64,000 nucleotides of DNA, taken from the NCBI GenBank assembly GCA_016840405.1, contig JAEOSK010000001.1, positions 1 through 64,000 of the forward strand, read 5' to 3'. A model generated the notes under the pieces. The model had not been told where the DNA came from and ran no database searches. It worked only from the letters and a program-made list of their open reading frames with translations. The DNA comes from Candidatus Hermodarchaeum yapensis (GTDB lineage: Archaea; Asgardarchaeota; Hermodarchaeia; Hermodarchaeales; Hermodarchaeaceae). Positions 48,269 through 51,908 of this stretch are shown piece after piece. Position 1 is the first letter of the stretch. The number at the start of each line of letters is the position of its first letter. The translations under genes were made by a program, and so were the position numbers.

Positions 48269-49498
48269 TTAAGCAAGAAGGGCTTGAACTTCGTCAGGGA
48301 ACTCTATTTCGATATCATTGCGAACCAACTTGGAAATTCCAGATTCAAGGCGTTTTTGCAGGGTTTTTAACCGCGCAGTAATCCGGGTGACTTGTTCCTC
48401 TATATGCGCGATTTCAGATTTCACATCCCGATGCTCCCACTCAGCACGTTCCAAGGATTTCTCCAAATCTCGACGCTCATCCGACGACACCGCACTCTCT
48501 AGCTCATCTTTCCGAGACGCAAGGTTGGAAAACCGCAACCGATACTCATCTAAGTCCCCTTTCTCAACTACCCCGGTCTTCCGATCCAACACTTTTCGAT
48601 TCAAACTCGCCTTAAAATTCATCTTACCATTTTGAATAGCCTCCGCCAACGCCATCAATCCTGCTTTCAACCGCTCAAGATCATCTGTATCACGCTGGAA
48701 AGCCGTCCACGGATCCTTCGAATATGCATCGGCCCCCTCGCCCGCTACTGAGGAGATCATTATCGACTGGCCTGCCGCCTGACTTACCTTCTTAAACGGT
48801 TTCTTGAGAAAATTCAACTGGTTCGTCACAATCATTCGAATACTATCAATTTCCTTGCGGATTCCATCGATCTCCGCCAAGCCAGAATCCATCCTGAACT
48901 GTTCAATCCCCTCCTGGTGTTCCTCGACCCTCCCCGCGGTCTGCTCCTTCTGTTCCCTTAACTTCGCCAATTGTTCAGATAATGCCAACACGTGTCGAGA
49001 CCGCTCATCAATCTCCTCTACTTCCTCACCAACCAGTTCCACCTGCTTCGGTAATTTTTCCTTTTCCCAATTTTTCTTAATCTTCTGATATCCCTGTCCA
49101 ATCGACCTAAATTGGTAATCCAACTCTTTGATAATCTTCTTATGCACACGCGGTAACCGCGGAATATACCGCCGCCCAGCATGCGTCGTATCCTGCAAAT
49201 AATCCTCTAAATCATCCAGCAATTCCTCTACCGAAGAATAGGTAATCTCCTCTGGAAACACCATGTCCTTTGCACTACTTTTCAAACGGCTCGCTAACTT
49301 CTGAGCCGAACCGGGCACCGTCAACTCCCCATCAATCACTACCTCTTCCAATAGCTCATCCGACGTCTCTACCGTTTTCACCAACGCCTCATCAATCCGG
49401 TCCAACTGCTTCTGAATATCCAACCGATAATTCGAAAGCAACTCACTGGTCCGCTCAGCAAACCACTCCGGCAACTCATGCACGCCAATCACAGTCAA
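48269..49498 (-). CDS. Long helical/coiled-coil protein
   Basis: 409 aa, heptad-rich. Confidence 0.8.
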   Translation of the reverse strand: MTVIGVHELPEWFAERTSELLSNYRLDIQKQLDRIDEALVKTVETSDELLEEVVIDGELTVPGSAQKLASRLKSSAKDMVFPEEITYSSVEELLDDLEDYLQDTTHAGRRYIPRLPRVHKKIIKELDYQFRSIGQGYQKIKKNWEKEKLPKQVELVGEEVEEIDERSRHVLALSEQLAKLREQKEQTAGRVEEHQEGIEQFRMDSGLAEIDGIRKEIDSIRMIVTNQLNFLKKPFKKVSQAAGQSIMISSVAGEGADAYSKDPWTAFQRDTDDLERLKAGLMALAEAIQNGKMNFKASLNRKVLDRKTGVVEKGDLDEYRLRFSNLASRKDELESAVSSDERRDLEKSLERAEWEHRDVKSEIAHIEEQVTRITARLKTLQKRLESGISKLVRNDIEIEFPDEVQALLA

Positions 49499-49660
49499 TC
49501 TTCACAGCCTCGCTTCACAAAACAGAACCACCTACTAAAAAAACTACCTCAAGAGAATCCTAATCACCACCCCGCCCAAGCAGCTTGCACGAAAAGCTTA
49601 TCAACGCTCTTCCATAGTCAAGAATGCAACGCTAAAATCTTATGCTGTGGTGAGCGGGCA

Positions 49661-50551
49661 ATTATCCATAATGCAATTCTTTTCAACATCAGCCCCCGCA
49701 AAGACGAAGTCGGGCTCCAAGCCAACGTCATCTTCCACAAACAATACTGGCGCGTCCCCCTCAGCGACAACATGATCGGCGAATTCTTACGCGCCTACAA
49801 AGAATTCATGAGCCACGTCCAAAGCACCGACCTCCCCGCCCTCCCAATCCACATCCAAGGCACCAAATTCATCTTCACCAACATCGAAGACCTCCTCCTC
49901 GTCTTCATCAGCCACATGCAAGACGACGACAGCCGCGTCAACGAAAAAGTCAAAACCGCCCTCCGCATGCTCGTCGGCAAATACGGCACCGAACACATCA
50001 AAGACATCGCCACCAACAACAACACCCAACCCATCGAAGACCTCATCGACAACTACATCATGAGCAAACTCAAAGTCAGCCTCGTCGGCGAAGGCGGCGT
50101 CGGCAAAACCACCCTCCTCCGCCTCCTCAAAGGCACCGCCCCACCCACCGAATACGTCCCCACCATCGCCCTCAGCATCGAACAAATCGAAGCCACCCGC
50201 TACGGCACCTACCAAATCATCCTTTGGGACTTCGCCGGCCAAGAACGCTTCCGCCGCCTCTGGACCATCTACTTCCGCGGCTCAGATATTGTATTTATTA
50301 TTACGGACTCCACCCTCAACAACGTCATCGCCACCAAAGAAATCCTCGACGTCATCCGCAAAGACGCCCCCGGCGTCCCCGTCTGGGCCATCGCCAACAA
50401 ACAAGACCTCGAAGGCGCCCTCTCCCCCGAACTCGTAGAACGAATTTTAGGTATTCCAGCATTTGGTATGGTCGCCATCGACCAAGCCCGCAAAGAAGAG
50501 ATGCTCCAAATTTTGCTGGATGCAGTCGATCGCTACATCGGGACGGAGTAA
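49661..50551 (+). CDS. Longin-like domain fused to a Ras-superfamily (Arf/Rab-like) small GTPase; probable ATT start
   Basis: GEGGVGKT, YVPTI, WDFAGQERFR..W..Y, ANKQD; N-terminal IHNAILFN..IFHKQY. Confidence 0.85.
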   Translation: MIHNAILFNISPRKDEVGLQANVIFHKQYWRVPLSDNMIGEFLRAYKEFMSHVQSTDLPALPIHIQGTKFIFTNIEDLLLVFISHMQDDDSRVNEKVKTALRMLVGKYGTEHIKDIATNNNTQPIEDLIDNYIMSKLKVSLVGEGGVGKTTLLRLLKGTAPPTEYVPTIALSIEQIEATRYGTYQIILWDFAGQERFRRLWTIYFRGSDIVFIITDSTLNNVIATKEILDVIRKDAPGVPVWAIANKQDLEGALSPELVERILGIPAFGMVAIDQARKEEMLQILLDAVDRYIGTE

Positions 50552-50777
50552 AGAGCTACTACTTTTTTAATTATATTACTCAGTTGATCCACGAATTTCA
50601 TCCAAATATTCCGATAAGAATTCAATTCGCATATCTTGATGGTTGCTGATGTCCTCCCAATAACCATTCGTGGACATTACCAAGCCGCTCTGAGTGAGTT
50701 TGGCGATTCTGGATGCAATAAATGTTACCGAAAAAACTGCATCATCAGAGGTGTGTATAAGTGTCAAATTTTTTCTG

Positions 50778-50975
50778 TTAGATACGGCCAGGTATCATGA
50801 CTTCTGCAGGAATTTTGATTTCTGGGGCGGTCCACATGCGGAGTCGGACGCCGATGATGAATTGTAAAATGATGGAGATGAGGGAAAGTAAGAAAATGAG
50901 GATGACCAGGATGAGGGCAAAGTTGAAGATCATATTAACGATTGCGAGACCGACGAGAAAGGTGCCGCTCTTCAC
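50778..50975 (-). CDS. Possible small hydrophobic protein or gene remnant
   Basis: 65 aa with a long hydrophobic stretch. Confidence 0.4.
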   Translation of the reverse strand: MKSGTFLVGLAIVNMIFNFALILVILIFLLSLISIILQFIIGVRLRMWTAPEIKIPAEVMIPGRI

Positions 50976-51363
50976 AGTTTTACTGCTGTTCGTACCGCAT
51001 GAATTCTCACTTAGTTATGTTGGAGGATGGATTGCGGTGCAATTCCTCTTTGTGCTCGTTTTGGCTATTCTTGGTGGGTGGCAGATTGCGCTTGGCGCTT
51101 CGGTCCTGCTCCTTTTGAAGTTGTTACTTCCAGTCACACTGTTAGTGTTATTCCTTCCCTTACCGAATCCTTTGACTGTTGTATTCCTCTTTATGTCTGG
51201 TGTCATCGTTGGCATAATTATTCTCAGCAGTCTTAGCTGGAAATTGGCGTACCGCTTCTGCGATTCGCACCTCATTCAAGGTGGCGCGGTCATAGGGATT
51301 ATGGGGGGTACGATTTGGCTAATCGTTCTCGTTATCCTGTGGTTCTACATGAATACGCTCTAG
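50962..51363 (+). CDS. Possible 4-TM membrane protein (start uncertain; 3' part of ORF 50797-51363)
   Basis: Hydrophobic C-terminal ~130 aa. Confidence 0.4.
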   Translation: MPLFTVLLLFVPHEFSLSYVGGWIAVQFLFVLVLAILGGWQIALGASVLLLLKLLLPVTLLVLFLPLPNPLTVVFLFMSGVIVGIIILSSLSWKLAYRFCDSHLIQGGAVIGIMGGTIWLIVLVILWFYMNTL

Positions 51364-51372
51364 CCTAGTTAA

Positions 51373-51768
51373 CTATAAGTCGCCTTTAGTCGGTTCTTCA
51401 ACAATGAGACCCGCGATGAGGGCGAGGAGACCAGGGAGAGAACCCAGGAATATGAGTCCGAGGATGCCGATGACGATGAGACCTGTCTTGTGAAGGTCTG
51501 GGGTGTGTCGCCAGCGTAAAGTGTAAATGGCGACGATAAGAGTGGGGATGCTACTGATGAGTGCGATTATGGGAATGAATAGGATAAGCCAATCAAAGAT
51601 GGTGGTCAACATTGCTAGTGTTGCTGGATCAATTAAGGGGGCTAGGCTTGCCAGAAAGGTGGGTAAGAAGTACCATGCCCAGACAGCCACAACAATTTTG
51701 TTAACAAATTCGACAATAAATAAAATGCCAGCAACTAAAGTTAAAGTTCGAGCTGTTTTTGTGCTCAT
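51373..51768 (-). CDS. Small membrane protein
   Basis: 3-4 TM segments; LPGLLALIAG. Confidence 0.75.
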   Translation of the reverse strand: MSTKTARTLTLVAGILFIVEFVNKIVVAVWAWYFLPTFLASLAPLIDPATLAMLTTIFDWLILFIPIIALISSIPTLIVAIYTLRWRHTPDLHKTGLIVIGILGLIFLGSLPGLLALIAGLIVEEPTKGDL

Positions 51769-51908
51769 TTTGTATGATTCACCTTTTCAGAATCTAGAGG
51801 CTGTAGTGTTGCCTGAGTGAGCTTATCGTTTCGGTGCTAAAAAGTTATACAATTTTTATTCATAAGAATTGATGAAGGTATAATTAAAATTCAACGAGGT
51901 TTTGACAA

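Follow-up and report, generated by a model that had tools for sequence, protein, structure and literature searches.

Homing proceeds by resection of a break and its repair through homologous recombination. The 3' ends left by resection face the centre, and it is the outward strand that is newly made or comes from the donor. During homing in phage T4, co-conversion extends up to 2 kb (PMC2790892). The tracts called GRINS are kilobase stretches skewed C/A versus G/T, most strongly at third codon positions, and tied to gene conversion, that occur as duplicated segments within polyketide synthase (PKS) clusters (PMC8256042). Human meiotic break hotspots display a mirror asymmetry over flanks of about 2 kb, attributed to resection and gap filling, with C>N and A>N changes on the exposed strand (PMC7615360). 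Here we describe a sharp reversal of strand composition (hereafter, the flip) at the 3' end of a small GTPase gene in a 64,000-nucleotide stretch of Candidatus Hermodarchaeum yapensis (the window, contig C14:1-64000 of an assembly of 2.7 Mb in 77 contigs; this genome is labelled G000). The flip is probably a scar left by the repair of repeated homing-type breaks, at an endonuclease site that is empty here. The literature that we searched holds no report of a mirror-image compositional scar arising from homing.

On the plus strand, a C-rich stretch (about 48.4 to 50.5 kb) is followed by a G-rich one (about 50.8 to 52 kb), and the centre of the flip lies at 50490-50541. In 200-bp bins, the GC skew was -0.24 to -0.47 in every bin of 48401-50400 and mostly positive (+0.03 to +0.40) in 50601-52400. 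The first-pass annotation had noted the reversal from hand counts, which turned out to be exact (32 C and 8 G at 50101-50160, 24 C and 4 G at 49321-49380, 19 G and 5 C at 50881-50940). Genes were called with a model allowing biased codons, as an ordinary caller picked antisense shadow open reading frames (ORFs) in skewed genes. The plus-strand C-G residual, corrected for amino acid, codon usage and coding strand, gave a z of +17.8 on the left and -6.3 on the right, so that the skew persists after control for amino-acid content and orientation. The left arm, about 2.1 kb long, is far stronger than the right arm of about 1.2 kb. Its core is the GTPase gene (49661..50551, plus strand; Arf/Roc/Ras-like with an N-terminal domain, matching Pfam Arf, Roc and Ras; z = +15.6), in which 85 of the 91 fourfold sites of codons 50-250 (49775-50375) carry C. 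Its distal part is a minus-strand gene for a 409-aa coiled-coil protein (48269..49498; z = +12.5), with orthologues 64-96% identical and a fourfold G frequency of 0.47 versus a genome mean of 0.17. The G-ending codons of this gene mirror the C-ending codons of the GTPase; the flip is independent of gene orientation, as had been annotated. The right arm begins with a 65-codon membrane-protein fragment (50778..50975, minus strand; z = -5.3; plus-strand fourfold G, 0.62) and reaches a 131-aa small membrane protein distally (51373..51768, minus strand; z = -4.0). The G-rich count at 50881-50940 falls inside the 65-codon gene, which has C-ending codons, and not in a long plus-strand ORF. The left arm had also been described as C/A-rich; this holds for C but not for A, which appears mainly where Lys, Glu and Gln codons need a purine.

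The genes to the right of the GTPase vary between species. In four relatives (G003, G007, G011 and G012), the neighbour of the GTPase is a convergent, free-standing LAGLIDADG gene that encodes about 530-580 aa and is incomplete in two assemblies, and the slot that it occupies corresponds to the switch zone of the window (50490..50780). This homing endonuclease gene (HEG; slot loci L002-L004, L086, L087, L090 and L092) lies between genes and faces an intact GTPase in convergent orientation. Its product carries the motifs LLGNLVSDA and LQGLNDGDG, with an invariant Asp in both, and a structural model (pLDDT 74.9) resembles PI-SceI, I-DmoI, PI-PfuI and WhiA, all 50 listed PDB matches being of LAGLIDADG type. 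A family member on contig C21 matches PF14528. Nine of the 14 genomes of the genus contain the family, patchily and at many unrelated loci; in 10 other genera sampled it was not found. In the sister genus, the GTPase is unskewed and the HEG family was not found in the one genome searched. The slot is empty in the window and in L001, L007, L210 and L211, and no HEG remnant was found in the switch zone or right arm of the window. Two further C-rich genes (C25:837 and C45:56923) have no element in G000 and a HEG next door in relatives. Another member of the same LAGLIDADG family lies at 326-1850 of the window (minus strand); it is frameshifted and AT-rich with unskewed flanks, and its copy in G005 has an open frame of 544 aa.

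The position of the switch differs between alleles. In occupied alleles, the C tract mostly reaches the GTPase stop, and a mirror tract extends over the initial two thirds of the HEG and stops abruptly near the second motif. In the empty alleles L007 (97% identical) and L211 (86%, C-terminal part), the codons go from C/A- to G/T-ending at WDF|AGQE, about 330 nt before the HEG insertion slot; the window allele is unchanged there. Because L007 and L211 share the switch codon, the WDFAGQE codons (50225..50245 of the window, plus strand) are likely to be the cut region of the endonuclease. A metagenome scan yielded only two further full alleles of the locus. Many related contigs (L005, L006 and L008-L012) terminate within the C-rich GTPase, and under-assembly of such sites is possible. 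Patches of 8-11 A/T-ending codons interrupt the C tract of the window, and other alleles have such patches at other places. One patch (50282..50305, plus strand), at which the close relative L005 has C, may have been imported as a short conversion tract or may be a target variant that resists cutting; at the other (50435..50467, plus strand), 10 of 11 codons do not end in C.

Across the genome, the skew is linked to endonuclease, intein and intron sites. The relatives are not independent and kinship was left uncorrected; the element-site tests were made within one genome. The exteins of all 10 inteins were C-rich on the left and G-rich on the right (P = 3e-4 versus random sites, 900 bp), and 9 of 10 were positive at 240 bp (P < 5e-6). 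Four of the seven scorable HEG loci of G000 had host flanks in the top 1%. In PolC of most relatives, the C tract is maximal at the intein start and the exact end of the intein is where a G/T tract sets in; in G011, whose PolC has no intein, the flip at the empty position is more moderate. The MCM gene, without an intein here, flips at GDPGTAK|S, where six relatives carry one, and intein-bearing MCM alleles are near saturation on both sides. The flip in porB coincides with the intein position in G021. The flip in radA coincides with a 59-nt insertion in G006 (L164:675-733) that has a bulge-helix-bulge fold and whose predicted cuts restore the frame. This insertion, at a genus-wide radA flip, is a candidate bulge-helix-bulge intron in a protein-coding gene. 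Among the few cases available, sister-genus inteins show the signature in part, and inteins of other Asgard families (G021, G022, G025 and G026) show little or none. The 3' part of the PolC intein (L014:4165-4770) is neutral and varies between lineages; like the last third of the HEG (L002-L004), it is an unskewed, lineage-variable core that holds the second LAGLIDADG motif. Because this core is unskewed and differs between lineages, the pattern suggests that specificity domains are swapped between element alleles.

A genome-wide scan found 39 two-sided C>G flips, among which that of the window ranks 2nd, and 19 reverse flips that are weaker. Many C>G flips are intragenic, in all gene orientations, and the plus-strand residuals of adjacent opposite-strand genes are correlated (rho 0.26-0.28; n = 423 and 455). 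The focal, strand-asymmetric process that had been proposed from the sequence is borne out by these observations. Averaged over the top 15 centres, the signal fades by about 2.5 kb. Centre cores are often AT-rich, and no shared motif was evident by eye. An element lies within 1.3 kb of only 9 of the 39 centres and 6 of the top 10, versus 4% of the genome covered (porB was added later). The strongest centres, on C76, C42 and C30, hold two more families of free-standing LAGLIDADG-like genes (L015:4048-6171, L017:3064-4335 and L016:4485-6206). Their motifs were recognized by eye, with no LAGLIDADG Pfam match, and the composition of their proteins is moved toward Thr/His/Pro/Gln or Gly/Val/Trp. 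Weaker signals in the window are a two-sided flip at about 4.6 kb, an intragenic flip at about 42.5 kb (gene 41966-42856) and, at about 60.8 kb, a G-rich arm that is largely one-sided. Repeat-like matches on C67 were discarded as not being real tracts.

We propose the following course. A free-standing, two-motif LAGLIDADG endonuclease would cut alleles either within the conserved GTPase gene or directly after it, where we infer both the cleavage and its position. Resection and recombinational repair would then affect about 2 kb on each side of the break. The strand that is re-made or donor-derived would run 5' to 3' outward on both sides and would gain G, leaving the plus strand C-rich on the left and G/T-rich on the right. 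The window is an empty allele, and its right arm would be weaker because it consists of newer cargo.

For the recent substitution spectrum, changes were counted at fourfold sites along the G000 and G002 terminal branches, and G005 served to define the arms. On the C-rich strand, T>C was raised 1.96-fold (p = 2e-4) and A>C 2.2-fold (p = 7e-4); therefore, the other strand, which runs 5' to 3' outward, gains G from A and T. C>T was changed 0.85-fold, not significantly, and G>A, G>C and T>A were not raised, with small counts of G sites. The annotation had predicted a rise in both T>C and G>A; the former was found, the latter was not, and A>C came in addition. It had also suggested local initiation by an error-prone polymerase or long-lived single-stranded DNA (ssDNA). 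An error-prone polymerase is plausible in break repair but not in replication initiation, and cytosine deamination on ssDNA, which would raise G>A, is not supported. The genome encodes a Y-family polymerase and a PolB2-like protein. For the biasing step we lean toward error-prone fill-in placing G opposite T and A, ahead of heteroduplex repair favouring donor-strand G, which has a lesser but real chance of being correct. The data fit both a mutation bias and a fixation bias.

One form of fixation bias is a variant of the break model and not an alternative to it. The breaks would be the same, and the skew would result from EndoMS/NucS-type correction of G/T, G/G and T/T mismatches in heteroduplex toward the donor strand, with other mismatches left in place. 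A nucS gene is present with only one MutS_V match, and the published specificity predicts the observed polarity (PMC4838380). Fourfold divergence is not clearly raised (0.20 in the arms versus 0.18; 3/58 in the GTPase), and the slight, nonsignificant reduction of C>T also fits. This variant nevertheless predicts G>C, T>A and G>A on the C-rich strand, none of which was raised (again with small G-site counts), and A>C, which would stem from a weak EndoMS substrate, was doubled. We therefore regard it as unlikely.

Several observations weigh against a scar of homing-type breaks. Recent G>A is not raised even though twofold sites are strongly A-biased, so that the spectrum is incomplete; G sites are few. 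HEG-bearing alleles are skewed too, and their centre falls within the final third of the HEG, a pattern that simple homing into empty alleles does not predict. Several HEG copies have no skew; these are perhaps recent arrivals. With the window and radA excluded, sites that are empty in G000 and occupied in one relative showed no excess (mean d 0.28, P = 0.32). An element is seen at only the 9 centres given above, and none was found at most weaker flips. The flips in hdrA, in the GTPase C14:93954 and in the paralogue C14:73779 are kept, with no element in 10-14 relatives. On the other side, both GTPases often switch at the WDFAGQE motif too, in keeping with the putative cut region; the test of this G3 motif over all GTPases was weak (P = 0.015). 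A common target in all small GTPases was considered and set aside as weakly backed, with the P-loop and NKxD motifs equally weak. Behind another small GTPase, at C14:94.7-95.8 kb (L391:2196-3383), G000 has a unique insertion, TnpB-like by eye, and the flip there is conserved in relatives without it.

Alternatively, the host itself might define hotspots of breakage, or of recombination-dependent replication initiation free of origin recognition boxes (ORBs), at which HEGs, inteins and introns gather secondarily. At most of the 39 centres no element was found, some of them genus-conserved; the polarity is that of bidirectional initiation, and the cores are often AT-rich. Tract edges, however, match intein junctions, and the switch points move between alleles. 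The centres share no evident motif (by eye) and ORBs are excluded, decay within 2 kb is much below the spacing of centres, and the GTPase is unskewed in the sister genus, in whose one searched genome the HEG family was not found. Host-defined hotspots are improbable, and we retain homing-type breaks as the most likely source of the flip.

The first-pass annotation also pointed to an origin-like polarity, while noting that it saw no cdc6/orc gene or ORB repeat. The latter was accurate: Cdc6_C matches occur only on C3, C18 and C24, and no ORB is present in 48-53 kb. The genome's own ORB core, with up to 2 mismatches allowed, has no match there or near the top 25 centres. A canonical Orc1/Cdc6 origin with an unusually strong local skew would agree with leading-strand G/T enrichment and with an AT-rich tract at the switch. 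ORB boxes (TTCCAGTGGAAAC...GGGG) were found instead beside cdc6 at C3:42.6-44.1 kb (L013:2600-4120). This site has four boxes upstream of cdc6, including an inverted pair that flanks an AT-rich stretch, and is the probable chromosomal oriC. Its skew is weak (zl 0.0, zr -4.1). Given this site on another contig, the shift of the switch by about 330 nt between alleles, and 39 flips of which many are intragenic, the flip is very improbably an origin; its likeness to an archaeal oriC, with ORB boxes, an AT-rich unwinding element and an adjacent orc1/cdc6 gene, is limited to the polarity of the skew.

Least credible of all is an explanation by codon preference or transcriptional bias in convergent genes with high expression, or by faulty assembly. 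In its favour, the GTPase converges with the 50778-50975 gene and both have C-ending codons, coding strands genome-wide prefer C over G, and many related contigs end in the GTPase. Against it, the divergent minus-strand gene is G-ending, flips are intragenic and in all orientations, the GTPase has G/T-ending codons over its 3' third in L007 and L211 and is unbiased in the sister genus, and misassembly was ruled out by independent assemblies that have the flip and share parts of the right side.

Misassembly is also countered by homology with L001, which extends about 90 nt beyond the GTPase stop, and by L210, in which the 131-aa gene lies at the same distance from the GTPase as in the window.

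Other features of the region are as follows. The 131-aa membrane protein belongs to a multicopy family with 9 paralogues in the genome, and its region is variable cargo. The 65-codon gene is a shorter homologue of C76:75713-76189, which in turn forms part of the right arm at a different endonuclease centre. The start codon of the GTPase is probably not AUG but ATT, at 49661-49663: a conserved ATT/ATA aligns to the Met of the paralogue and is preceded by a GGTGAG-like motif, and in-frame ATG, GTG or TTG codons upstream are absent in L001, L004 and L211. The AT/T-rich tract immediately 3' of the GTPase stop (50560..50580, plus strand; A+T, 19 of 21) has no ORB and no Rfam match, and is probably an ordinary archaeal T-rich terminator. 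No notable repeats, tRNA or Rfam family were found at the flip site, and the interval 48-52.5 kb contains no long repeat.

If the reading as a homing scar is right, composition alone would map recurrent cutting and DNA exchange in uncultured Asgard chromosomes, flips would point to the cut sites of uncharacterised endonucleases, and they would offer defined sites for studying how gene conversion yields C/A versus G/T skews. On this reading, a local skew flip in an archaeon is no sure mark of an origin, and genes such as MCM, PolD and RadA contain locally recoded tracts in this lineage. More tentatively, homologous repair of double-strand breaks in Hermodarchaeia might involve a strand-specific gain of G that saturates silent sites and recodes proteins. 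Every C>G flip would then be a fossil site of recurrent breakage, including targets of unsampled elements, and the repair chemistry may cause GRINS.

The locus resembles known systems in different respects. With the seg/mob genes of T4 intronless homing (PMC2790892), I-DmoI, PI-SceI and PI-PfuI, the HEG shares an intergenic, patchy occurrence and LAGLIDADG fold and motifs, and with intronless homing also the affected zone of about 2 kb and a putative target in a conserved neighbouring gene. It differs in being chromosomal, in its Asgard host and in extra helix-turn-helix (HTH)-like regions. Human meiotic hotspots are far weaker and have another spectrum, whereas silent sites here are almost saturated. 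The likeness to GRINS lies in third-position recoding in the window. It extends to the amino-acid shift (Pro/Thr/His/Gln versus Gly/Val/Trp/Cys), measured in the HEG arms of G000 and relatives: Thr/His/Pro/Gln make up 0.26-0.33 of the C-rich HEG parts versus 0.17 of the proteome. For the intense, correlated GC and TA skew of GRINS (>0.15) the picture is mixed: such values occur over about 49.4-50.2 kb (GC -0.24 to -0.47, TA -0.14 to -0.47), and in the 48269-49498 gene the TA skew is close to zero or has the opposite sign. Unlike GRINS, the locus lacks a duplication of >500 bp at >80% identity, the nearest GTPase paralogue having 45% protein identity. Here the tracts occur in single copy, form mirror images around a defined site and are tied to targets of endonucleases.

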